A stretch of DNA of 39,451 nucleotides. Source: a virus (lineage: Duplodnaviria; Caudoviricetes). The notes below the pieces were generated by a model, which worked only from the letters and a program-made list of their open reading frames with translations, was not told where the DNA came from and did no database searches. Positions 6,306-31,345 of the stretch are shown here, piece by piece (position 1 is the stretch's first letter; each line of letters opens with the position of its first letter). Location: IMG/VR virus record IMGVR_UViG_3300048687_000155, positions 1 through 39,451 of that record; one strand, given 5' to 3'. Made by a program: the position numbers and the translations under genes.

Positions 6306-7351
6306 AAAACAACCCAGGTTCTGATTGGGATACCTTTGGCGTCGAGGACCCACCTAAAACCAACGGGAAAGACCACAAACCACCACCCCAACAGGAACCA
6401 CCGCCCCGTGTTTACAACTGCGAAGAAGTACTCGCGATCGAAACCCCGACCGAAGAAATGCTGTTTGAGGGGTACCCTATCCCCGCACGCGGAGCCACCC
6501 TTAAAGTGGGAGCGGCCCGCAGCGGGAAAACCCTCCTCGCCGTACAGGAAGCCATCGCGGTCGCTAGTGGAAAACCATTGTTCGATTACTATCGCGTGCT
6601 CACTCCCGGACCGGTATTGATCGTCGAACAGGACGACCCTGGAGGCGCCTCCAGCATTAAAACCATCATCGAACGATCAGGCATTACCAAAGGCTCCAAC
6701 CTGCCGTTACACGTCGCAACCGGGGTAAATTTCGGGTTCGGCCTCGCCATGCTCGACTGGCTCGAAGAACAAATCGAGCGACTGTCCCTTCGCATGATCG
6801 TTCTCGACTCCTATACCGCGCTGCGCGGTCCCCATCAATCCGGCGGGGATATCGTCAAAACCGAACAATTGGAACTTACCGCGCTCGACGAACTCGCCAA
6901 GCGCCGCGCCATGGCTAACCAGATCATCCACCACGGGTCCAAAACCGCCGCCTCGAAAAGCCTGGACTGGACCATGTCCGCGGCCGGCACCTTCGTCATG
7001 GGCGCTGCCACCGAAGCGCAAGTTCACCTCCAACGGTTTTCTGAAATGGACAGCGCCGCCACCGAGCGCCTGATCCGGATCCGCGGCCGGCATTCCGCCG
7101 ACGTTCAGATGGTTCTCAAGTTCCGAAAAGAGACTTTGAACTTCGAGTGGATTCTCGAGGGTAGTGCCGCTTCGTTCTATCCCCTGATCCAGCAAATCCA
7201 GCTGGAGTTCAAACGACAAGCGTTCGACTACAAGGAACTGATGAGTCTCACCGGGGCTAGCCGTTCGACAACATTCCGGCAACTTAACCAACTACAGTTA
7301 GCCGGCGTACTCAATAAGACCGCGCACGGCAAATATATCTTGACTGTGTGA
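6302..7351 (+). CDS. RepA/AAA_25-type replicative helicase with C-terminal wHTH
   Basis: Walker A GAARSGKT; Walker B MIVLDS; IIHH motif. Confidence 0.85.
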   Translation: MKNNPGSDWDTFGVEDPPKTNGKDHKPPPQQEPPPRVYNCEEVLAIETPTEEMLFEGYPIPARGATLKVGAARSGKTLLAVQEAIAVASGKPLFDYYRVLTPGPVLIVEQDDPGGASSIKTIIERSGITKGSNLPLHVATGVNFGFGLAMLDWLEEQIERLSLRMIVLDSYTALRGPHQSGGDIVKTEQLELTALDELAKRRAMANQIIHHGSKTAASKSLDWTMSAAGTFVMGAATEAQVHLQRFSEMDSAATERLIRIRGRHSADVQMVLKFRKETLNFEWILEGSAASFYPLIQQIQLEFKRQAFDYKELMSLTGASRSTTFRQLNQLQLAGVLNKTAHGKYILTV

Positions 7352-7640
7352 GACTCGTGAGACTGATGAGACTATTGAGCCGCGGACCCCCTAAATTGCG
7401 TTAGCTGGTTAACGTTCAAAGTTGAGCGTGAGACTGATAGATCCCTAGGATCTATGAGACTAATGAGACTAATGAGATTAGTGGGACTGATAGAGAGAGC
7501 ACAAAACGCTATGTACGAAGCCAGATACACCCTGGGCGGCGCGAATCAGAGACGAAAGTCTCATCGGTCTCACAGACTCACATAGGGGCCAAAGTCTCAT
7601 TCGGTATTTTTAGTCTCATCAGTCTCATCAGTCTCATCAG
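7349..7640. repeat. Iteron-like TGAGACT repeats with 9-bp period in opposing orientation; putative replication origin
   Basis: Forward copies at 7349, 7358, 7367, 7429, 7455, 7464 (degenerate 7473, 7482); reverse copies at 7557, 7593, 7612, 7621, 7630 (degenerate 7566); non-coding, directly after the helicase. Confidence 0.75.
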
Positions 7641-7665
7641 TAGTAAATGTTAAGGAGGATTACAA

Positions 7666-9019: not shown

Positions 9020-9970
9020 TTGGATACTAAGATTTGTACTAGCTGCAAAGCTGCCAAGGACCTCTTGGAGTTCTACTCGTATTTCCGCAAGAGGGACGGC
9101 AAAACTCGGGTTGAATCAATCTGTAAAGTTTGTCACCTAGTCCGAGATAGACAAGGTCCCAAGCAACCTCGCAAAAAAGAACCGTTTCCGGTCGCTTCTG
9201 ATGAGGGCACCAAAGTTTGTATCAGGTGTTGTTGCCTGAAGTCTCTTGAAGAGTTTTATTCGTTTTACTCGAGTCGATATGGCAAAACATGTACGCATGC
9301 TCAATGTAAAAAGTGTAAGGCCAGTGAGACAAAGGCACATTATGTGCCTCATCCGAAACCAATCCAGGTAAAGACAGAAGAAGAGAAGCAGCAGTATTTC
9401 CGGGACTACCAAAAAAGCAATCGCGGCAAGATGAATTCTTACCGGGAAGCCTGGAAGGCTAAGAACCGGGAGTATTTCGAGGCTCAGGCAGCGGCTTATT
9501 ACGAGGCTAACAAGGATCGTATCCGGGAGCGAGACAAGGCCAGGCGTAAGGCAGAGAAGGAAACTGCTAAGACGCGCTGGCGATCCGAACGGCTAGCAAA
9601 GAAAGCACGACGGGATGCAGGTTGGCGTAAGGAAGCCCCAGCGATTCAGGTCGCTGTTACTGAGTGCTTGGAATCCTACCGGATTGGGAATCAGTATTGG
9701 GATGTTTACGAATCACAGTTAATCGATAATCCGACTATCGATCACATTGTGCCGGTTACGGCAGCAGGCACGCACACCGCGGATAACTTCTGCATAACCT
9801 CACTTGAAAACAATGCTTCAAAAGGAAATCGGTCCCTTCTCGTCTGGCTTGCCAAACGTGCAAGGCGATTTGCAGCAGCTGCTAAATCCAGCGGCACTCG
9901 CGGCCGAAAGGCTACGTCGCCAGAGAAATCGGCTCGATCAAATCTTCCCAGAGAAAGGCCCGTTCCGTAG
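9020..9970 (+). CDS. HNH endonuclease with N-terminal Zn-ribbon repeats
   Basis: Repeated K-x-C-x2-C...EFY units; TIDHIVP...N...NASKGN; overlaps the 5' end of terL. Confidence 0.8.
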   Translation: MDTKICTSCKAAKDLLEFYSYFRKRDGKTRVESICKVCHLVRDRQGPKQPRKKEPFPVASDEGTKVCIRCCCLKSLEEFYSFYSSRYGKTCTHAQCKKCKASETKAHYVPHPKPIQVKTEEEKQQYFRDYQKSNRGKMNSYREAWKAKNREYFEAQAAAYYEANKDRIRERDKARRKAEKETAKTRWRSERLAKKARRDAGWRKEAPAIQVAVTECLESYRIGNQYWDVYESQLIDNPTIDHIVPVTAAGTHTADNFCITSLENNASKGNRSLLVWLAKRARRFAAAAKSSGTRGRKATSPEKSARSNLPRERPVP

Positions 9971-10613
9971 GGAATTGTATCCGAAGCATATGCTGTTTTT
10001 CCGCGGTGGTGGCCAGCATGATCCGATTCCTGGGTGTTGTCCTCCGGAGTGTGATGGCTCACCGCATAGAGAACGTTGCTGGATCGCAGCGAATCGTGTC
10101 GGGAAAACTACAGCAGGTGTTTACGAGGTAGTACTTCATCTTACTGGGAAATACCCTGACTGGTGGACAGGTAAGCGGTTTGATAGGCACATCAAGGCAT
10201 GGGCAGCATCAGATACCAGTAAAACTGTGAGAGGGGTTCTGCAGGAGAAATTTCTGGGCCCTCCTAATGCCAGGGGCACGGGATTAATCCCAGCAGATGA
10301 CATCGTGTACTCGACTGCTAAGGCTGGGATAGCGGAAGCTGCTGATGTCATCTACGTAAGGCATGTCAGTGGTGGTATATCGAGCGTGCAGTTGAAGAGT
10401 TACCAGGAAGGGCGTGAGTCTTTTCAGGCGGACACCATTGATTTTGTGCTTTTGGACGAAGAACCCGAAATCTCAATTTATGCTGAGGTTCTTATTAGAA
10501 CCATGTCAACTAACGGACAAGTCGCGCTTGTATTCACGCCTCTTCAAGGATTAAGCGAGGTAGTGTTGAGTTTCCTGCCGGAAGGAGCGCAGCCGAAGGT
10601 GGTGGCTGAGTGA
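9804..10613 (+). CDS. terL: Terminase large subunit, N-terminal ATPase half (P22 gp2-like); exact start uncertain
   Basis: YPKH motif; Walker A AANRVGKT; YPDWWTG; Walker B LLDEEP; coupling motif FTPL. Confidence 0.9.
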   Translation: MKTMLQKEIGPFSSGLPNVQGDLQQLLNPAALAAERLRRQRNRLDQIFPEKGPFRRELYPKHMLFFRGGGQHDPIPGCCPPECDGSPHRERCWIAANRVGKTTAGVYEVVLHLTGKYPDWWTGKRFDRHIKAWAASDTSKTVRGVLQEKFLGPPNARGTGLIPADDIVYSTAKAGIAEAADVIYVRHVSGGISSVQLKSYQEGRESFQADTIDFVLLDEEPEISIYAEVLIRTMSTNGQVALVFTPLQGLSEVVLSFLPEGAQPKVVAE

Positions 10614-10717: not shown

Positions 10718-10746
10718 ACGGGCGCTAATGCGCTAAAGCGAAGAGC

Positions 10747-11275
10747 GAAGAAGCCGACATAGAAGAGAGAACCAGGAAGCCAGAGCGAGCCATTACGAGA
10801 GAGAGCACCGTGATCATAGAGCGAGCCGTGAATACAGAGGGCACCGTTGATTTAGAGCGAGCCATGGCTTTCGGACAAGGAGAGCGAGCCGAGAAAACTG
10901 AGAGTGCCGTGCTCAAGGAGCGAGCCGGGGAAATAGAGAGCACCGTCGCACGGAAGCGAGCCAAGCAGCAGGAGAGTACCGCACTGTCCGAGCGAGCCGT
11001 AATCGCGGAGAGGTACCGAAGAGCGGAAGCGAGCCGGGGTTTCGGAGTGTTGCGCTAAAGCGTGTTGCGCTAAAGCAACGAACCGAGAAAAAAGAGCGAG
11101 CCGACATGCACGAGAGCACCGGATTAGGTGAGCGAGCCATCAAGCCAGAGAGTACCGTGCAGCAAGAGCGAGCCATACACACTGAGTGAACCGGGATGCG
11201 TGAGCGAGCCGAAGACAGTGAGTGAACCATGCGTTACGAGCGAGCCGAACCCAAGAGAGAGTAGCCTTAACTGGT
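10747..11275 (+). ncRNA. TIGR-like tandem interspaced guide RNA array, ~14 units of 36 nt (9-nt edge repeat, spacer A, 9-nt loop repeat, spacer B)
   Basis: Edge repeat RAGCGAGCC alternates with loop repeat GAG(A/T/G)G(C/T/A)RCC; unique 9-nt spacers; abuts a Nop-domain gene. Confidence 0.88.
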
Positions 11276-12083
11276 GAGCGCAAATATCGAAGCTGTCCAG
11301 AAACTGTCGCGGGACCTTCGCGCCGCCGCCAAGCTGATGGGTGTGCGCGAAGCCAGATATTTTGTTGACAGTTACTACGACCTTCAGGACTACCGCATCG
11401 CAGCCGCCAACCAGCAGCGCAAACTGCTCGAGGGCCAGGAGCCCTCCGAATTCATCGCCTGGCTAAACGGGCAACTGGTGGTGCTCGAGAATCAGATCAA
11501 AGCCGTGCTCGACAAGTGGAGCGCGGCGCAACCGATGGGCGAGTGGAGCCGTTCGATCGTAGGGATCGGCCCCGTAATTTCATCGGGATTGATTGCCAAC
11601 ATCGATATCACAAAAGCCCCGACCGTAGGCCATATCTGGAGATTTGCGGGCTTGGATCCCACTACGAAATGGGGTAAAGGTGAGAAGCGCCCTTGGAACG
11701 CATCCCTCAAACGTCTGTGCTGGTTGATGGGCGAGTCGTTCGTTAAGGTGAGCGGGCACAAGGACGATGTGTACGGCAAGCTGTATCTCGAGCGCAAGGC
11801 CTATGAGCAGCAGCGCAATGAGGCTGGTGAACTTGCGCCGCAAGCAGCGGAACGCCTAAAGCAGGCGAGAGCAAAGAAGTTGGATGACGGCCTGATTAAA
11901 CTGTTCGAATCCGGCAAATTGCCCGCAATGGCTCTGCACGAGCGGGCAAAACGGTGGGCGGTTAAGCTGTTCTTGGCACATTACCAGGAAGCTGCATACC
12001 GTTTGCATTATGGGACGGAACCGCCGCTCCCGTACCCAATTGCACATTTAGGTCATGCGCATTTAATAAAGGGGCCTCAGTAG
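11274..12083 (+). CDS. tasA: TasA-like protein (Nop / IS110 C-terminal domain, no RuvC or HNH)
   Basis: Coiled coil, SIVGIGPVISSGLI, IWRFAGL, PWNASLK, HERAKRWAVKLFLAH; no N-terminal DEDD domain; directly downstream of the array. Confidence 0.8.
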   Translation: MSANIEAVQKLSRDLRAAAKLMGVREARYFVDSYYDLQDYRIAAANQQRKLLEGQEPSEFIAWLNGQLVVLENQIKAVLDKWSAAQPMGEWSRSIVGIGPVISSGLIANIDITKAPTVGHIWRFAGLDPTTKWGKGEKRPWNASLKRLCWLMGESFVKVSGHKDDVYGKLYLERKAYEQQRNEAGELAPQAAERLKQARAKKLDDGLIKLFESGKLPAMALHERAKRWAVKLFLAHYQEAAYRLHYGTEPPLPYPIAHLGHAHLIKGPQ

Positions 12084-14370: not shown

Positions 14371-14504
14371 CGGAAGCGGTGTCTACCTTGCTATCCGGCT
14401 ACCCGGATATCGATGGACCGTTGCTGGGGCTGTACGACTGGCGTTGTGAGAAGCGGTTGCTAGAATCCGAGATTGCACAAGAAGACAACGCAAGCGGAGA
14501 TTGA
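14301..14504 (+). CDS. Small hypothetical protein
   Basis: RBS GGGAGG; helical ELERCDREI segment. Confidence 0.5.
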   Translation: MVSGAAAVRNAKARELERCDREIAEAVSTLLSGYPDIDGPLLGLYDWRCEKRLLESEIAQEDNASGD

Positions 14505-15284: not shown

Positions 15285-16040
15285 ATGGCTGACCCCAGCG
15301 TAACCGAAGAGAAGAAGACATGTACTCAGTGCGGCGAAGCGAAAGCGCTCTGTGAGTACAGAACATACAAAGAAGTAGCCGGTATTGGTAAGCGAAGACA
15401 GCGCCAACGTACCGAATGCAGAACTTGCGCTGCGAATCGTTGCAAAGAATCGCGAGTACGAATTCGCACAGCCGAGCTTGAAATTGCGCAGAAGCGATTG
15501 GAAACGCTTGCACCAGAGAAGCGTTGTTATATTTGCACTGCAACAAAGCCGATAGAGCAGTTTCGGCGAATCAATTACATAACAAGCACTGGCAAGTTAA
15601 GTTGGCGGTTTGATAGTAGATGTCTTGAGTGCACCCGAGAACGCGATCGACAACGCTATCAGCACAATCAGGAAAAGGAAAAAGCGCGAGTAAGAGAGTA
15701 CGGCAAGCGCACACGTGAAGAGCGAACGGCAGTCGCAAGACTCTATCGCCAGACGAATCCTGAAAAACTAAAGCAGTGGCGTGAAGCGAAGTACAACCGA
15801 GATCTGGAGCGTAAATATGGCGTCACGTTCGAGATCTTTCAAGGACTAATAGAGCGCTATGGACGGCAGTGCATGATCTGCAAAAACAGTGAAGGCAAGA
15901 TCGGAGTCGATCACTGTCACAAGACCGGTAAGATCCGTGGTCTCCTCTGCAATGGTTGTAATCTCGCACTAGGCAATATTAAAGAAGATCTCGATCGAGC
16001 ACGAGGGTTGGCACATTACATCGAGGCTTATTGCAAATGA
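15285..16040 (+). CDS. Endonuclease VII-type HNH homing endonuclease
   Basis: CMIC...VDHCHKTGKIRGLLCNGCNLALG; N-terminal Zn ribbons. Confidence 0.85.
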   Translation: MADPSVTEEKKTCTQCGEAKALCEYRTYKEVAGIGKRRQRQRTECRTCAANRCKESRVRIRTAELEIAQKRLETLAPEKRCYICTATKPIEQFRRINYITSTGKLSWRFDSRCLECTRERDRQRYQHNQEKEKARVREYGKRTREERTAVARLYRQTNPEKLKQWREAKYNRDLERKYGVTFEIFQGLIERYGRQCMICKNSEGKIGVDHCHKTGKIRGLLCNGCNLALGNIKEDLDRARGLAHYIEAYCK

Positions 16041-16783
16041 GTAAGTTCGTGGTGATGGCAACTTGGTCGGATATCCCGCACTTAAGTGAAGAGGCTAAAT
16101 TAGATCTTTGGAATTCTATTCCTGCATATCAGCGTGAAGCACGATCGAAGGGTATCCCCTCGCTTGGTTCGGGTGCGATATACCCGATAGCGGAATCCGA
16201 TTTAGTGGTGCCGGAGATGGCGATCCCAGATCACTGGCCGCGTGCGTATGGGATGGATGTAGGGTGGAACCGGACGGCGGTTGTGTGGGTTGCGCTCAAC
16301 CGGGATACGGACGTTCTGTATTGCTGGTCCGAGCACTACCGCGGCGAAGCCGAGCCGGTGGTACATGTGCAGGCGATCCAGTCGAGGGGCAAGTGGATCC
16401 GGGGCGCGATCGACCCTGCAGCGCGAGGCCGGGGACAGATCGACGGCCGGGAACTGTTGCAGATGTACACCGACCTGGGGTTGGACCTGACACCCGCGGA
16501 TAACGCAGTCGAGTCCGGTATTTACCACGTGATGACGCGCATGAGCTCGGGCCGGCTGAAGATCTTCCCATCGCTGGCGAACACGTTGAGCGAACTGCGG
16601 CTGTATCGGCGGGATGAGCGCGGCAAAGTGGTAAAGGCGCGGGATCACCTGATGGATGCGCTCCGTTATGTTTGTGTTGAGCTGCACAACGTGATTCAAA
16701 CCAAGTCGACCGCGGTGAAGGATGAAGACCGCGAGTACCTGACGCCGGAGCGCAGCTACGCCTCGACCGGTTGGATGAGTTAG
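16037..16783 (+). CDS. terL: Terminase large subunit, C-terminal (lid plus RNase H nuclease) half
   Basis: TWSDIPHL...REARSKGIPSLGSG; GMDVGW; DHLMDALRY; ATGA overlap and GAGG RBS. Confidence 0.9.
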   Translation: MSKFVVMATWSDIPHLSEEAKLDLWNSIPAYQREARSKGIPSLGSGAIYPIAESDLVVPEMAIPDHWPRAYGMDVGWNRTAVVWVALNRDTDVLYCWSEHYRGEAEPVVHVQAIQSRGKWIRGAIDPAARGRGQIDGRELLQMYTDLGLDLTPADNAVESGIYHVMTRMSSGRLKIFPSLANTLSELRLYRRDERGKVVKARDHLMDALRYVCVELHNVIQTKSTAVKDEDREYLTPERSYASTGWMS

Positions 16784-19370: not shown

Positions 19371-20714
19371 ATGCCTGCTTTCGATGTTGCGGGTGCCCGG
19401 AAGGCCGGTTACGACGATAAGGAGATCCTGTCGTATGTCGCCGGCGAGGAGAATCCGGACCTGATACCCGGCACCGATGCGGAGAAGATCCGGCTGTTGC
19501 TGGCCCGCAACGGCAAGCACATGCTGGATGTCGAGTATCTTTCGCCAACGCAACTGGAGCCGATGCAGGAGGTGCAGTTTCAGGACTGGGCGAAGCGCAA
19601 TAAGGTACGTCTTGAACCCGGGTGGAACGAAGACTACGACATGCGCGGGCTCTGGAAGGCGAACCCGAGCGCATCGCCGGATCCGCACGGGCACTGGCCG
19701 GACACGTATAAGCTGCCGAACCACCCAACCTTTTCGAGCCAGTCGGTGTATGCGCTGCCGGATTCGCCCAGGTGGTACGGGAAGCGGCTGATTGACTCGC
19801 AGGGCAAGGTGCTTGCGGATGAGTCGGATTCTCCGTTAGATTTACCGGAACTTCCTGCTCCGAAGTTGCCGCAGGGTCTGAGTGGTCCGCCTGCTTCTGT
19901 TCCCGGCAGCGTGCCGCAGACTGGAGAGCGCCGCAACCTATCGCCACAAGAAGCTGATGCGTTGTGGAGTGAGCAAGGTATACAGCCAACGTTGCCGCCG
20001 TTAAACCCGATGGATCTGGCGATGCTGGGGTTGAGCGGTCCGGAGCAGGATACCGGGATCCCCTTGTCGATGCTGGCAGCGGTGCGAAAAGGCGGCAAAG
20101 GCACAACCTTAACAGACCTGACCAAGCCGGTTCGGGCGTACCACGGAACGACAAAGTTTTTTGACGAGTTCGACCCGGCAGTATCGAAGGACCTCGGTAT
20201 CCATTTCGGCACGCCTGAACAAGCGACTCAGGCTGTTAAAGGTTTTTATGGGGATTTCCCCGAAGGTGCGCATATCCGGCCCGTGGATATCAAGGTGGAG
20301 AATCCCGTCAGGCTGCCGGATATTTTTTCGCTTCTCGGCAAGGGCAGGGTTTCCGATGTTAAGAAGCTAACGCTCGAATCTCCTCTGCGGTGGGCGGATC
20401 AAGACCGGCAACAGCTATATGCCGCAGCCAAACGCATCGATGCGCTAAAGCGAAAAACAGGCGGGATCAGATCCTGGGTCCTGCCGGAACACTCGACTTT
20501 ACTAAGCGATGCGGAAAAGGCGGAACTTAAAGATGTCGAGCGCAGCTACTGGGCTTTAGTAGAGAAAACCATCAAGGACAACGGGTACGATTCTGCCGTC
20601 TACGCCAACAAGGTTGAGGGCAAAGGCGACAGCTACATCATGTTCGATCCTGCCCGCATTGCTCCTGCTTATGGCGGCTCCCTCCCGGATTTAGTCAAAA
20701 AGAAACGGAAATAG
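19371..20714 (+). CDS. Multidomain protein with C-terminal ART-PolyVal-like ADP-ribosyltransferase domain
   Basis: RAYHGT...GIHFGT...GYDSAVYANKVEG..SYIMFDP; N-terminal GYDDKEI motif; central HWPDTYKLPNHPTFS domain. Confidence 0.65.
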   Translation: MPAFDVAGARKAGYDDKEILSYVAGEENPDLIPGTDAEKIRLLLARNGKHMLDVEYLSPTQLEPMQEVQFQDWAKRNKVRLEPGWNEDYDMRGLWKANPSASPDPHGHWPDTYKLPNHPTFSSQSVYALPDSPRWYGKRLIDSQGKVLADESDSPLDLPELPAPKLPQGLSGPPASVPGSVPQTGERRNLSPQEADALWSEQGIQPTLPPLNPMDLAMLGLSGPEQDTGIPLSMLAAVRKGGKGTTLTDLTKPVRAYHGTTKFFDEFDPAVSKDLGIHFGTPEQATQAVKGFYGDFPEGAHIRPVDIKVENPVRLPDIFSLLGKGRVSDVKKLTLESPLRWADQDRQQLYAAAKRIDALKRKTGGIRSWVLPEHSTLLSDAEKAELKDVERSYWALVEKTIKDNGYDSAVYANKVEGKGDSYIMFDPARIAPAYGGSLPDLVKKKRK

Positions 20715-20716
20715 AT

Positions 20717-21658
20717 ATGTCATTAGTTGTATCCAGCACCACCGACAGCCAGGAAGCGGTCAACGCGGCCGCCGGCATCGAAGCGCCCCCTGAAGAGCAG
20801 GCGCAGAAGCCAACGCCGGTTCCGCTCGAGGACCCCGACACCGAGGAGGAAGAGCCCGAGGATCCGGACGAGGAAGATTCCGACAAACCGGTTGCGGAAC
20901 AGAATGCGCTAAAGCGAGAGAAGCCGAAGGGTGGGTTTCAGCGTAAAATCGAGCGCCTGCAAGCGCAGAACGAGCAGCGCGAGCAGCGGATCCGGGAGCT
21001 TGAAGCGGAGCGCCAACGCTATGCACCACCACCCCAGCAACCGCAGCAGCAACCTGCCGGACCTCCGAAGGCGGAGGATTACCCCAACGACTACGAGGCT
21101 TACAACCGGGCGGTGATCCGCTACGAGGCACGCCAGGAGATCGAGCAGGAGCTGAAATCCCGGGTGGAAGCGCAACGCCAGCAGGCCGAGCAGAAGGCGC
21201 AGCAGGAGATAGATCAGCGCTGGCACCAGGGTGTGAGCGCGATGAAGCAACAAGCTACGGATTTCGAGGATACGCTCGAGAGCGTGTCGCACATCATATT
21301 GCCGCCGTGGATTGAAGCGGCGATCAAGCGGGACCCTAACGGGGCGCATCTGGCCTATGAGCTGGCGCGTCACCCGGAGGAGTTTCAGAAGATCGCCGAG
21401 ATCCCGAACCCGCTGGAGGGCATCAGCGCTCTGGGCGAGTTTCGAGGATCGATTAAATCACAGGCGGCAGCACCGCGTGGCGCTGAAGCGGATCTTCGCC
21501 AAGGCGCTCGAAAGGTTGCATCCGATGCGCCCGCGCCGATCCGGCCGGTCGGTCAAAGCGTGTCCGGCACCCGAGTCACCCGTTCGCTCGACGAGTTGTC
21601 TTATCAGGACTACAAGCGGGCCCGCGAGCGGGAGATCAAAGCGCGGAAGCAGCGCTAA
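20717..21658 (+). CDS. Scaffolding protein
   Basis: Acidic N-terminus; GFQRKIERL; HLAYELARHPEE; precedes the coat gene. Confidence 0.85.
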   Translation: MSLVVSSTTDSQEAVNAAAGIEAPPEEQAQKPTPVPLEDPDTEEEEPEDPDEEDSDKPVAEQNALKREKPKGGFQRKIERLQAQNEQREQRIRELEAERQRYAPPPQQPQQQPAGPPKAEDYPNDYEAYNRAVIRYEARQEIEQELKSRVEAQRQQAEQKAQQEIDQRWHQGVSAMKQQATDFEDTLESVSHIILPPWIEAAIKRDPNGAHLAYELARHPEEFQKIAEIPNPLEGISALGEFRGSIKSQAAAPRGAEADLRQGARKVASDAPAPIRPVGQSVSGTRVTRSLDELSYQDYKRAREREIKARKQR

Positions 21659-26798: not shown

Positions 26799-28810
26799 CA
26801 ACTACGAACGATAACTGCATCGGACTGATGAGTGGGACGCTGGTGCGTCCCGTGCCGCGCTACCCCGCAAGCGTTGTCACTGACGCCTCGCTGAAGGTGG
26901 CCGCCAACCGCATTCAGGCGTCCCTGGTGGGATCTGTGGGAGTGGGCGACACCCTGCTAACGTTTGCCGATGTATCGCGCCTGGTGCCCGATATGCTGCT
27001 TTCGCTCGATAGCGAAATTGTCAGCATCACCTCGATCAGCGGCAACGTGGCTACCGTAGTTCGCGGCTTTGACGGCACCCAGCCCGCTTGTCACTCCTCA
27101 GGAACGATTGCAGCCGCCAATACGGTTGCTTATCATCACAACGCACTGGTAGCCGAGGTCGAAGCCATCGAGCAGGCGCTCGGGCCGAACCTGAGCAACA
27201 TCGGCGGGGCGACCGGGTCCTCCATCCTTGCCGGCAGTTATGACTTCGCGGCGCAGACTCCCGGCGGCACGCTCATTGCCGGCACCAACGTGATCACGCT
27301 GAACCCTGTGCCGCGCGGTGTCAGCGGAACCGACAAGCATCATTGGCTGTGGATCGACCAGGGCACGGGAACGCCTGAAGCCTGCCTGATCACCGGCGGG
27401 ACAGCGGTTTCGGGCGCCGTATCGGGCACTGTGATCGTCAATTGCGCGTTTCCTCATTCGGGCGCGTGGCGGATCTCGAGCGCAACCGCCGGCATCGAAG
27501 AGGCGTTGAACCTGTCCCGCTACGTTGCGGAAGCCAGGCGTACCGTTACGATTCACGCGCCGATTTGGCTGGATAGCGTAAAGGAACTTTATGCTGCGCC
27601 GCTGTGGGGAGTCGAAATCATCCAGGCATCCGTCAATACCGACTGCGTGTGGATCGGGGATGACGGGTTGTCGGAATCGCTCGGGTGTGTGTTGCGCGGC
27701 TTTAGTTTTTCAACGGCCAGCGGCACATGGTCATCGGGCTGGGCGATCAACGTGAGGTGCGCCGGGTTTGTCGAGATCCGTGACTGCTACGTGTACGCCA
27801 ATAGTCTGATATGGGGCGGCATCAACTTATACCGTGTAGTCCGCGGGAATTTGTGGAACAACTACATTTCAAGGACCCAGAGCCACGGTGTGCTGATCTC
27901 CGGTCGCGATGCGGGCAACCAGTCGATGACCTGCAACCTGATCCACTGCGAATTCGTCTCGCCCGCCGGGAATCCTGTCCGGGTCGGTGATTACGCGCAG
28001 GGGCTTTCGTTCCGGGACTGCATTTTTAACGGGTGCGTTACGGATGCCATCTCGTTTTCTCCTGCCACGTTTACCTCGGGCGTGAACGTCAACTACTTCA
28101 TCTCGGAATGCGACATCGAGGGTGCGGGCATCTACGCGCAGAACGTAGCCAATCTGCAGATTGTGAATAACTGGTTGTCTGCCGCGCCCGCGTTAAGCAG
28201 CCTGAAACTCGCTGCTTCGGTCGATACCGTAGTGTTTGTGGGCAACCTCATCACCGGGGCGGGTGGCGCAACATCGGTTCCGCTCATCGATAACAGCGCT
28301 ACGAATGTGCTGATCTCGGGCAATTCCATCAATGGCGGTGGCACGCCGCTGATACCCGTGCTCGTCGCGGTAGGGGCAGCGGCTAGAAAAACCACGATTA
28401 CCGGCAATCTGTTGTTTCTCGCGGACAAGTGCGTGCAGATTAATGCTGCCGCCGCAGACACCAGCATCACCGGGAACACGTTTACTAATACCACTACCCC
28501 GGTATCGGGCAAGGGCAGCAACCGTTATGTCACTCAGAACAAGGGTATCGACGATCAGATACCGGGGGGCATGACGGCGACCGCAACGATAACGCCGCTG
28601 AACCCGGTGGTGATCGTTGTCGGAACAACGGCGATCGATACCATCACGGTTCCCGATACGTTCTCGGGACCGTTGACGCTGCTGCCCGGGAATCCGTTTA
28701 CCTGGACGGCTGCCGGCAATATCCGGGTGGCGGGGACCGCGGTGGTCGGCAAGGCGCTCACGCTCGTGTGGGACTACATCGATGCCAAGTGGTGGCCGAG
28801 CTACACCTGA
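26795..28810 (+). CDS. Tailspike with right-handed beta-helix (putative depolymerase)
   Basis: N-terminal anchor with VVRGFDGT; repeated I-x-GN-x-I/F beta-helix coils. Confidence 0.75.
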   Translation: MTTTNDNCIGLMSGTLVRPVPRYPASVVTDASLKVAANRIQASLVGSVGVGDTLLTFADVSRLVPDMLLSLDSEIVSITSISGNVATVVRGFDGTQPACHSSGTIAAANTVAYHHNALVAEVEAIEQALGPNLSNIGGATGSSILAGSYDFAAQTPGGTLIAGTNVITLNPVPRGVSGTDKHHWLWIDQGTGTPEACLITGGTAVSGAVSGTVIVNCAFPHSGAWRISSATAGIEEALNLSRYVAEARRTVTIHAPIWLDSVKELYAAPLWGVEIIQASVNTDCVWIGDDGLSESLGCVLRGFSFSTASGTWSSGWAINVRCAGFVEIRDCYVYANSLIWGGINLYRVVRGNLWNNYISRTQSHGVLISGRDAGNQSMTCNLIHCEFVSPAGNPVRVGDYAQGLSFRDCIFNGCVTDAISFSPATFTSGVNVNYFISECDIEGAGIYAQNVANLQIVNNWLSAAPALSSLKLAASVDTVVFVGNLITGAGGATSVPLIDNSATNVLISGNSINGGGTPLIPVLVAVGAAARKTTITGNLLFLADKCVQINAAAADTSITGNTFTNTTTPVSGKGSNRYVTQNKGIDDQIPGGMTATATITPLNPVVIVVGTTAIDTITVPDTFSGPLTLLPGNPFTWTAAGNIRVAGTAVVGKALTLVWDYIDAKWWPSYT

Positions 28811-28811
28811 C

Positions 28812-28860
28812 GTTCGCTTTAGCGCGATCCGTTATGCCCCGGAAATGCGCTAAAGCGAAC
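28812..28860. repeat. 14-bp perfect inverted repeat made of two GCGCTAAAGCGAAC copies
   Basis: gttcgctttagcgc-N21-gcgctaaagcgaac. Confidence 0.8.
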
Positions 28861-28944
28861 TCGCCCCGATAAACAGCAGAACCGCGAAGAAAAAGAAAGC
28901 CACAGCGACCAGCGCAAGCGAGATGACAAACAGGATTAGCACGA

Positions 28945-29724
28945 ATGCCCAACTTTAATACAACCCTGTGGAACTCGTCTATCTGGGGCGGTACCAGTGG
29001 TACTACGGGCACAGGTGCCGTTACCGCCCGAAGGCTGATCTACGACGCCTACCGTGCCCTCGGTGTTTTGCGTCCCGGGCAGCAGACCAGCCCGGAAGGA
29101 CACGAGGATGCCTTCGGGCTGCTCAACGATATGGTCGATTCCTGGAACACGGAATCGCTGATGATCCCGGCCCTTGAGCGTGCGGTGTACCCGCTGACCG
29201 CAGGAGTTGGTTCCTACACATTAGGACCAGGTGGAACGCTGAGCGGATCTCGTCCGCAACGAACCGTAAGTGCAGCACTGGTGGCCTGTGATTGCGGGTG
29301 TGGCTGCGCTGATGGCGATTGCCGGCAACTGGTATTACGTTCCACGTGGATGGACTGCTCCTTGAAGTGTGGGGTTTTTATCGACTCGGCGTACCCGAAC
29401 GTGAACGTCCGCATCCATCCCGCACCGTCCGCAGGACAGTCCCTGGCACTGCAGTCCTGGGGAACGCTCTCGAGCTTTGCGGATCTCGACAGCGCTTACG
29501 GGTTCCCTCCGGGTTATGCGCTCGCGTTGCGGTGGGGATTAGCTTTCGAACTCGCCCCGTTGGCGTTGATCATGATGAAGATACCGTCGAACCTGCTGCA
29601 GGTGATCGAGCAACGTGCCGTAGCATCGAAGGCTGCAGTCAAGTCGTTCAACTCGAGTCCACCCCCCGAGATAGAGATAGCCTCTGGTGGACACTACGAT
29701 TTCTGCTCGGATTCCTATATCTGA
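28945..29724 (+). CDS. Head-tail adaptor, P22 gp4-like (copy 2) with Cys cluster
   Basis: TARRLIYDAYRALGVL..G...DAF.LLNDMVDSW; FPPGYALALRWGLA.ELAP. Confidence 0.75.
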   Translation: MPNFNTTLWNSSIWGGTSGTTGTGAVTARRLIYDAYRALGVLRPGQQTSPEGHEDAFGLLNDMVDSWNTESLMIPALERAVYPLTAGVGSYTLGPGGTLSGSRPQRTVSAALVACDCGCGCADGDCRQLVLRSTWMDCSLKCGVFIDSAYPNVNVRIHPAPSAGQSLALQSWGTLSSFADLDSAYGFPPGYALALRWGLAFELAPLALIMMKIPSNLLQVIEQRAVASKAAVKSFNSSPPPEIEIASGGHYDFCSDSYI

Positions 29725-29727
29725 AGA

Positions 29728-29807
29728 GTTGATCCCCCGGAAAAATGCGAACTGCGGCATCTCTATCGATAACGCGTACCCGCTTCAATGAGGCCGGGGG
29801 ATCAACC
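29728..29807 (-). CRISPR. Single-spacer CRISPR fragment with truncated type I-G(I-U)-like repeats
   Basis: Minus strand: GGTTGATCCCCCGGCCTCATTGAAGC, 36-nt spacer, TTTTTCCGGGGGATCAAC; the halves merge into a 36-nt repeat ending ATTGAAGC; no cas genes. Confidence 0.65.
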
Positions 29808-29864
29808 GCAGCGTAGCACTGAAGCTTCAAACGAATCTATAGCACGGAAGTACCACAGGTTCTA

Positions 29865-30365
29865 ATGTCTAACTGCATACCGATTCCCGGCCCTCCGGGA
29901 CCCCCGGGGCCTACCGGACCGCAAGGCATACCGGGGACTCCGGGCGGACCCCCTGGACCGGCTGGCCCAACGGGCGCAACCGGGGCGACCGGCGCCGCGG
30001 GCGCAACTGGGCCGCAGGGGCCGGCCGGTGTCGTCAACCCGTTCCGTCTCGGACATACCTGGGGGCTGTCCGGTGATGTGTCAGCCCTAACCACGCTGCC
30101 ATCCATGTTCGTGCCGCTGCGTTCAGGGCAGGCATCAACGCTGATCGGGCTGCGGGCGAAGATCGGGAGCGGGACCAGTATCGGTGTGCAACTGAAGCGC
30201 AACGGCAGCAACCTCGGCAGCGTGATAACAGTGACCACAACTGTAGCGACAACGGTGTTCAGTCAGGCACTGGCGGCCGATGACGAGTTGACGCTGGTGC
30301 TGTCCTCCCCGGCAGGCACCCCCTCGAACCTCGGCATGACTTTATACCTGGAGCACACCCCATGA
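29865..30365 (+). CDS. Collagen-like tail fibre protein
   Basis: Gly-X-Y repeats followed by a beta-sandwich C-terminus. Confidence 0.75.
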   Translation: MSNCIPIPGPPGPPGPTGPQGIPGTPGGPPGPAGPTGATGATGAAGATGPQGPAGVVNPFRLGHTWGLSGDVSALTTLPSMFVPLRSGQASTLIGLRAKIGSGTSIGVQLKRNGSNLGSVITVTTTVATTVFSQALAADDELTLVLSSPAGTPSNLGMTLYLEHTP

Positions 30366-31345
30366 ATCTGCTCCTCATCGATAGTTTTGACCATTACAAC
30401 ACTGCCGATATTGCCAAAAAATGGACTGCGGCCAACATCGGCAGCATCAGCGCAGGCACCGGACGGAACGGCACCGCTTCGATGCGAATCTTCGGCTCGC
30501 AGAACGGTCCGCAGTTTTCCGTGTCCAACCTGCCTACGGTCTATGTCGGGTTCGCCTTCAGGTTGCAGAATGCCGGCGCGACCATGCACATGCTTCGCCT
30601 GCTCGACGGCGCATCCATCCAGCTCGACATGGGGATCACCCCGTCGAACTTCATGGTGGTCAAGCGGGGCGGCGCGACCGTGGTGTCTACCGCGACCACG
30701 AATGCGCTGTCGGCAGGAGCTTATTACTTCCTCGAGGCGCGGTTCACGCTGCACGCAAGCGCCGGGAGTTGCGAGGTGCGGGTGAACGGGGTAACCGTCA
30801 TCAACGACACGGGGCTGAACCTCATCACCTCAGCCAATGCCTATATGAATTCCGTAATGCTGATGTCTGCCGCGGGAACCGGCAATCACGATTTTGATGA
30901 TTTTTGGATGACGACAGATGCTTTCCTCGGGGATTGCAGGGTCGTTGCCGTATTGCCGCAGGGCGCAGGCAATTACAGTCAGTGGACTCCCAGCGCCGGA
31001 CTCGGGTGGCAGTGCGTCGACGAGGCGGCTATGAATGCCGATACTGATTATGTCTTGAGCGCCGTTGCAGGCCAGCGCAACTCTTACGACTTCGCCCCGG
31101 TTGGTTTTACCGGCAATGTCAAAGCGGTGCAGCAGATAACAACGCTACGCAAAGACGATGCCGGATCGCGCACAGCGCAGCAGTTCGCCCGCATATCGGG
31201 CACGGATTACGACAGTGCGAATATCACCGTACTCGACAGCTACGCCATGCAGCGGCGCATCCTGACGGTGAATCCGGCCACGGGCGCGGGCTGGAACACC
31301 TCTGATATCGATAATGCGGAATTCGGCACGCGGATTGTCAGCTGA
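30362..31345 (+). CDS. Tail/receptor-binding protein (lectin-like beta sandwich)
   Basis: ATGA overlap; FDDFW, GDCRVV motifs; beta-rich. Confidence 0.65.
   Translation: MNLLLIDSFDHYNTADIAKKWTAANIGSISAGTGRNGTASMRIFGSQNGPQFSVSNLPTVYVGFAFRLQNAGATMHMLRLLDGASIQLDMGITPSNFMVVKRGGATVVSTATTNALSAGAYYFLEARFTLHASAGSCEVRVNGVTVINDTGLNLITSANAYMNSVMLMSAAGTGNHDFDDFWMTTDAFLGDCRVVAVLPQGAGNYSQWTPSAGLGWQCVDEAAMNADTDYVLSAVAGQRNSYDFAPVGFTGNVKAVQQITTLRKDDAGSRTAQQFARISGTDYDSANITVLDSYAMQRRILTVNPATGAGWNTSDIDNAEFGTRIVS

Follow-up and report, generated by a model that had tools for sequence, protein, structure and literature searches.

A circularly permuted type I-G guide RNA gene lies beside its target gene in a P22-like podovirus and likely works like a homing element

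The window analyzed here, the whole DNA stretch of 39,451 nucleotides, is the complete 39.4-kb record of a P22-like podovirus with direct terminal repeats. The genome encodes a P22-like portal and coat together with several HNH and endonuclease VII genes, and the metagenome runs containing the phage come from soil and rhizosphere; no RNA data set is among the runs listed for it. A non-coding unit of 80 nt, which encodes no endonuclease, lies between a head-tail adaptor-like gene and a collagen-repeat gene, 3 bp past the stop codon of the former (Table 1). Among the atlas neighbors of the adaptor-like gene, SU10_adaptor or P22_Tail-4 is found on 11–22% of members. No Cas family matched any of the 47 ORFs of the phage that were scanned, and the handle motif of the unit is present once in the whole genome.

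Table 1. Positions of the split unit, its neighboring genes and its own target copy in the window
Feature	Positions	Strand	Basis or remark
Head-tail adaptor / tail-tube-like gene (target gene)	28945–29724	+	phrog_12985
Own diverged target copy with PAM	29361–29399	-	copy 29396–29361, TTC PAM 29399–29397; 23/36, mismatch block at guide positions 9–12
5' half of repeat: T run and 3' arm (7-nt stem strand plus 6-nt extension)	29728–29745	-	T5 at 29745–29741; 3' arm at 29740–29728
36-nt spacer (37 if the repeat front has four T)	29746–29781	-	matches tail-connector gene of related phages
8-nt 5' handle ATTGAAGC of type I-G crRNA	29782–29789	-	equals repeat end in Spirochaetia I-G array
4-nt linker from stem base to predicted Csb2 cut site	29790–29793	-	T. 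sulfidiphilus Csb2 geometry; inferred
5' arm: 3' strand of repeat hairpin (7 nt) plus 6-nt extension	29794–29806	-	perfect inverted repeat with 29728–29740
Extended -10-like promoter (TG, 1 nt, TAnnnT hexamer at 29815–29810)	29810–29818	-	sequence, regex; inferred
Collagen-repeat tail-fiber-like gene, downstream	29865–30365	+	joins upstream gene directly in unit-less relatives

The unit consists of only two complementary repeat halves around a spacer, with no full repeat and no direct repeat. The half repeats, the 36-nt spacer and the 13-bp stem described in the original prediction were all borne out: the arms form a perfect 13-bp inverted repeat, one of only four perfect inverted repeats of at least 11 bp (gap of at most 100 nt) genome-wide. 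A contig from the independent run X4 covers positions 29623–29887 with no differences; because this run carries the identical stretch, the unit is no assembly artifact. Run X1, which may be where the record comes from, was left out of this comparison. Folding of the unit region gave a z score of -3.5, with none of 200 shuffles equally good, and an Rfam search of positions 28500–31000 returned as its best match CRISPR-DR16 on the handle half, below threshold (E 2.3). The extended -10-like motif ends 3 nt ahead of the 5' arm, and transcription is predicted to start within the first bases of this arm; a strict sigma-70 scan called no promoter at the unit. A reading of the unit as a terminator was rejected because its loop measures 53 nt and no terminator was called there. 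We identify the unit as the gene of a single-spacer type I-G crRNA in circularly permuted form.

The repeat class was assigned by comparison with a genuine array in a Spirochaetia MAG, whose repeat differs from the halves of the unit only at the first base and in the loop. This array adjoins csb2, cas7g and cas4g/cas1g, and the repeat of the unit therefore belongs to type I-G, in agreement with the I-G-like form recognized before. A search with the merged repeat, proposed at the same time, yielded this near-identical repeat and not the exact one, which is absent from 185,579 genomes scanned with a narrow pattern. The Spirochaetia MAG, the sole match to a wider repeat pattern, is not claimed as the phage host, and a host search via capsid homology and cluster names pointed to no host.

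The Csb2 protein of T. sulfidiphilus cuts 4 nt 3' of a 7-bp stem, leaving an 8-nt handle, and remains bound to the hairpin at the crRNA 3' end; the same system uses a TTN PAM and spacers of 36–37 nt, and its Cas7 leaves every sixth guide base unpaired (bioRxiv 10.1101/2022.08.08.503147, available text, as for the other papers cited here). The PAM differs among I-G systems, being TAT in Bifidobacterium (PMC12915315). When the arms of the unit pair, they give the I-G geometry of a 7-bp stem, 4 nt and an 8-nt handle. The unit thus resembles the T. sulfidiphilus crRNA in stem, 4-nt spacing, handle, spacer length and TTN PAM, but its hairpin joins both ends of the transcript and is predicted to become a two-piece duplex after one cut. 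A single Csb2 cut would yield a 62-nt RNA with a 17-nt 5' piece still annealed. The description of the guide as pre-trimmed was inexact, as the 8-nt handle would be released only by one cut 4 nt beyond the stem. The duplex energy is -26.3 kcal/mol for 13 bp against -14.8 kcal/mol for the 7-bp core, and we propose that the stem was extended from 7 to 13 bp because the cut-off 5' arm would thus stay annealed.

A repeat finder linked the spacer to the phage's own upstream gene (family D13); this target and its next-door position had been overlooked before. Translated from its plus strand, the spacer gives a 12-residue peptide with homology to a single site of the tail-connector family (at best 10/12 identical). 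The TAG-AG-ATG string, formerly likened to a gene junction, is a coincidence, as the other strand of the spacer reads in frame within the tail-connector gene. The phage's own target copy sits 332 bp from the unit, mid-gene and on the template strand. It retains the TTC PAM and guide positions 1–8, and it carries 13 mismatches, nine of them at paired positions and three of those nine at positions 9–11. Its divergence at the target site has a rank of 0.058, which is suggestive.

Comparison with relatives covered 37 loci, which gave 16 distinct best sites, 15 of them alignable. Thirteen of these 15 alleles match the spacer better than the phage's own copy (23/36) and two match it equally; a TTN PAM precedes 10 of the 15 (TTC in nine, TTA in one). 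The best relative alleles match at 28/36 with a TTC PAM, for which a simple binomial gives about 6e-6 per 20,000 sites. One relative (L016), in which the two genes join directly without a unit, carries an allele with eight mismatches, six of them at the every-sixth unpaired positions and only those at 10 and 35 paired. The suggested spacer search with PAM check thus succeeded for relatives and failed for an exact protospacer. Exact targets in cultured phages did not go beyond chance Erwinia matches, degenerate peptide patterns of the exact target gave no hit in viral or metagenome contigs, and no contig in runs X1, X2, X5 and X6 matched the spacer alone. Because the spacer is of full length, its rival matches are PAM-flanked and their mismatches fall at positions that Cascade leaves unpaired, we read the unit as a targeting guide and not as the decoy that had been offered as an option. 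That the guide targets relatives at all is very probable, and the phage's own allele may be spared through its mismatches at paired positions.

Neither the handle motif nor the unit occurs in 26 related viral records (four of them near-complete), so that spread is not directly visible. The unit is missing downstream of the gene in 23 of the 24 relatives listed, and the remaining one (L017) ends 8 nt after the gene. Eight listed relatives have a direct or near-direct gene junction at the unit site. Several relatives carry other, unrelated inserts there, marking the site as an insert hotspot.

Split units form a wider viral family. A motif scan without a pairing requirement, restricted to one motif class and covering 46 of the 64 IMG/VR parts, detected at least 122 viral loci. 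They amount to at least 147 distinct units, comprising 38 split units by a combined rule, 48 chance-like units and 61 canonical units in 18 loci. At least nine contiguous cross-arm pairs are present in 33 of the 86 units without a full repeat, compared with 0.29% of 6314 mismatched arm pairs. The 38 split units, among which the doubtful L146 was retained, carry 37 different arms; five or six pair types occur at stem positions 4–14, a diversity that is partly circular because the units were selected for pairing. Spacers of CRISPR length are found in 33 of the 38 split units versus 15/48 chance units, and an extended -10 motif lies upstream of 13/38 versus 3/48. The genes beside split units include major head, adaptor and other virion genes. 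Having no direct repeat, such units would escape CRISPR finders.

Linkage between unit and target was analyzed across 35 carrier records, some of them partial, with 36 spacers, among them this phage's, that of L049 and that of a borderline unit. For 17 of the 36 spacers the best match in the own genome lies at most 1.5 kb from the unit (5.2 expected), and 10 of the 11 own-genome matches of at least 23/33 fall within 620 bp (1.7 expected). With equal flanks of 300–500 bp, a local match at p ≤ 0.01 was obtained for 12/38 split units, 1/12 canonical units (from loci with at most two handles) and 0/48 chance units. TTN stands ahead of the best local site in 14/38 split units (1.7 expected). Without L146, the significant local matches are 11/37 and the TTN sites 13/37. 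About two thirds of the split units have no significant local match.

Analysis of mismatch positions, which leaves out L164 (best rival 24), revealed that in the rival alleles of eight spacers (rival at least 25/36) mismatches occupy 28/48 positions at 6n and 15/48 at 6n+3 (p = 0.007). The 18 own alleles, examined in preset windows, display no such bias (58 at 6n versus 57 at 6n+3, each of 108). The spacer reading phase places codon third positions at 3n in 14 of 18 cases (null 0.43, p = 0.003); this bias partly reflects codon usage, the null comes from the genes of this genome, and some automatic frame calls are doubtful. Carrier alleles depart from the guide by recoding or by PAM loss (L158, L164, L107). 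At the level of sequence, the layout is permuted, the stems covary, the targets are PAM-flanked, the own alleles look protected and the linkage is tight.

Individual carriers give a closer view of these relations. The guide of G027 matches the scaffold gene start of this window (20725–20763, minus strand) at 30/36 with a TTG PAM, and the scaffold start of G027 itself, immediately following the unit, has been altered by mostly synonymous recoding (22/36). On the far side of the G027 unit from the intact gene lies a shortened second copy of the scaffold start whose PAM is broken (L172:7728–7775), possibly a trace of how units arrive. The split unit of G029 is an insertion relative to positions 14450–14470 of the window, an empty site here. 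Compared with G046, the G035 unit is an insertion too; G046 bears a 28/36 target with a TTC PAM at a distance of about 350 bp. In G057 and G031 units occupy one site, and the guide of either phage is a better fit to the other.

The guide of L167 matches L336, a 97%-identical unit-less sister, at 32/36 with a TTT PAM and mismatches at positions 12, 30, 34 and 36; as a test of the prediction, L336 has no paired-position mismatch before 34. The L167 own allele encodes the same peptide and has mismatches at 3, 9, 13, 15, 30 and 34. Between L336 and L337, 6 of the 36 site positions differ versus 9% gene-wide (p = 0.11), which is likewise no more than suggestive of local recoding. Other tests gave weaker results: the L165 guide reaches 30/36, with TTC in 13 of 16 good matches. 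The L164 own allele (30/36, PAM lost) is better than that of any of 79 relatives, and among these 79 no relative reaches 27/36 for the L164 or L166 guides. A search for relatives of the L074 neighbor gene returned only itself.

The reading we prefer, at a probability of roughly 0.6, is that the permuted I-G guide directs host Cascade-Cas3 against co-infecting relatives at a site next to where the unit itself is inserted, and is inherited, together with the resistant allele, like a free-standing homing element. Minus-strand transcription would begin at the extended -10 promoter. In silico folding and covariation in the family show that pairing of the arms restores the repeat hairpin, whose loop is left open and whose stem grows from 7 to 13 bp. 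By the published geometry, Csb2 would cut 4 nt past the stem, and the product would have the handle–spacer–hairpin order of a mature I-G crRNA. Cascade-Cas3 would subsequently attack rival alleles with a TTN PAM, the target being shown by sequence and cleavage presumed. The resected rival genome would be repaired from, or recombine with, the carrier, copying the resistant allele and the linked unit, and the outcome would be local marker exclusion. A host type I-G system is an assumption of the model.

The earlier suggestion of a Cas-less guide that would hijack host Cascade finds support in these sequence comparisons. I-G Cascade-Cas3 resects bidirectionally and, with a donor present, supports homology-directed repair (PMC10482374). 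Free-standing homing endonuclease genes lie between conserved genes, their products cut hundreds to thousands of bp away, and the genes are inherited once resection reaches flanking homology (PMC2988022). The chances are even that the unit is a protein-free homing element: an 80-nt permuted guide which uses host Cascade-Cas3 as its endonuclease, cuts the neighboring gene's unit-less allele in co-infecting phages and is copied together with a recoded resistant allele. An equally balanced judgment applies to the extension of this idea, in which such units would be a natural and widespread RNA-guided cleave-and-rescue drive in phage populations.

The chief rival to the homing reading is whole-genome killing with linkage as a by-product. 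The unit would then be a plain inter-phage weapon: host Cascade-Cas3 would destroy whole rival genomes (superinfection exclusion), the unit would not be copied into rivals, and its adjacency to the target would reflect selection against self-targeting recombinants or capture of the unit at a Cas3 break. We consider this rather unlikely, although all the targeting evidence fits it equally well and the partial duplicate of the target-gene start beside the G027 unit resembles a capture scar. Array pieces can be captured through phage-CRISPR recombination. Published mini-arrays are interpreted as weapons (PMC11656645, PMC6858448), and wild-type I-G Cas3 makes long bidirectional deletions (PMC10482374), by which a 39-kb rival may be destroyed outright instead of converted. 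However, a significant local match occurs in only one of the 12 canonical short arrays of the same scan, a small sample, and close linkage between cutter and resistant allele would be expected to give drive whenever genomes recombine. Mere scars are also hard to reconcile with the 37 different stems, which are compensated and accompanied by promoter-like motifs.

The other explanations fare worse. It is very unlikely that the unit is a once-functional guide now inert in this lineage, or a structured insert whose only role in the late operon is RNA stability or termination; the lack of an exact target, the absence from the 26 related records and the hotspot for unrelated inserts are in its favor, but it is opposed by the perfect stem, by a handle identical to the end of a live I-G repeat, by the loop size and missing terminator call given above, and by the relative allele with only two paired-position mismatches. 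A Racr-like RNA anti-CRISPR would titrate Csb2 or Cas7 irrespective of the spacer, and since abundant repeat mimics can compete for Cas proteins (PMC10651486) such an effect could accompany targeting; as the main function it is most improbable, because the full-length spacer, the PAM-flanked targets, the target-gene adjacency and the 6n bias need base pairing in a complete Cascade. We give just as little credence to a regulatory crRNA-like RNA of the CreR or Cracr kind, which would repress a host cas promoter or the phage's own gene by parking Cascade there. Phage Cracr RNAs do exist (10.1101/2024.10.29.618823), and the own allele keeps its TTC PAM and guide positions 1–8; yet the Cracr spacers quoted measure 21–26 nt (10.1101/2024.10.29.618823) against 36 nt here, the spacer is placed mid-gene, on the template strand, and matches rival alleles better than the own one, and several members of the split-unit family have lost their own PAM.

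Several known systems come close to the unit. Virus-borne mini-arrays target related viruses (PMC11656645), and the mini-array spacers of SPV1 and SPV2 target regions near the arrays, a pattern whose 'origins and consequences' were not clarified (Medvedeva et al. 2019, PMC6858448). Like these mini-CRISPR arrays, which hold one or two spacers, the unit is Cas-less and intergenic, its targets lie in related viruses, and its own orthologous site is mutated. In contrast to them, it is a single repeat cut at the loop, with halves that flank the spacer and a lineage-specific stem (9–30 bp in the family), and it has no leader-repeat for new spacers; moreover, split units are of bacterial type I-G, and their adjacency to targets extends across many lineages. 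With the free-standing seg and mob homing endonuclease genes of T-even phages ('intronless homing', marker exclusion; PMC2988022) the unit shares an intergenic position, absence in relatives and an attacked site in the neighboring gene hundreds of bp away. It differs in being protein-free, with its specificity held in an 80-nt RNA and host Cascade-Cas3 as the candidate nuclease, and Cascade-Cas3 resects processively whereas a homing endonuclease makes one break.

Racr (PMC10651486) and Cracr RNAs (10.1101/2024.10.29.618823) are likewise phage repeat mimics that engage host Cas proteins. Racrs are solitary repeats in aberrant complexes (PMC10651486), whereas the unit has a targeting spacer; Cracrs direct short spacers against cas or toxin promoters (10.1101/2024.10.29.618823), whereas the 36-nt spacer of the unit matches phage coding sequence. 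The term 'I-G' does not occur in the main texts of PMC10651486 and 10.1101/2024.10.29.618823, and term look-ups in the available text of these two and of 10.1101/2023.03.03.530964 gave no split or permuted unit. Within the literature searched, which excludes subscription papers and preprint supplements, neither a split or permuted I-G unit nor the homing reading was found. Having no full repeat and no nuclease of its own, the unit is therefore classed as a new form of viral mini-CRISPR guide, which likely works like a homing element; new here is that its target is the adjacent tail-connector gene as found in related unit-less phages. The observation behind the original prediction is confirmed, and its interpretation is partly supported overall.

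If the homing reading is true, unit and resistant allele would spread jointly, in the manner of a homing endonuclease and without a protein of their own. A type I repeat can evidently be split and restored by pairing of the two transcript ends. Such a guide needs a single repeat, would go unnoticed by repeat-based CRISPR finders and cannot be lost through repeat-repeat recombination. The reading also offers a testable answer to the question raised in 2019 of why viral mini-array spacers target sites near the array. If linkage means homing, split units would be the smallest known selfish elements of their type and CRISPR immunity would drive phage gene conversion and mosaicism; reciprocal targeting within a phage clade could then be read from genomes, with this phage both shooter and target.

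Several further observations concern the family and the genome. Three split units (8250, 9197 and 12668 of G033:C1, L182) lie on a 16.9-kb contig, each adjoining a diverged copy of its target, and two units with stems of 25–30 pairs (G034:C1, 9011 and 31919) lie on a 100-kb contig. Short canonical or half-degenerate I-G mini-arrays occur in other viral contigs (L005/L006, L056, L106, L124, L143) and are possible intermediates toward the split form. A 10-nt hairpin motif, GC[GA]CT[AG]AAGC, has 19 copies in the window (e.g., 537, 1923, 10730, 13080, 16784, 26472, 28847 and 29816), 18 of them along the local direction of transcription, and is also present at the unit's intergenic spot in relatives L027, L028, L242 and L247; we guess it to be a boxB-like antitermination site.

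The terminase large subunit gene is in two pieces (9804–10613 and 16031–16783) separated by 5.4 kb, and an endonuclease VII-like gene precedes each piece. Between the pieces, positions 10746–11250 hold an array of two alternating 9-nt motifs with 18/36-nt spacing, followed by an ORF of 269 aa (11274–12083, plus strand) that has a weak IS110 transposase match and is 91–93% identical in G029 and G050. By layout, this array and ORF are TIGR-TasA-like (PMC12045711) and would represent a second RNA-guided system in the phage. Clusters of 9-nt tandem repeats in inverted arrangement follow the primase/helicase genes at 7349–7641 and are likely origin iterons. An ART-PolyVal domain gene lies between portal and scaffold at 19371–20714 on the plus strand.
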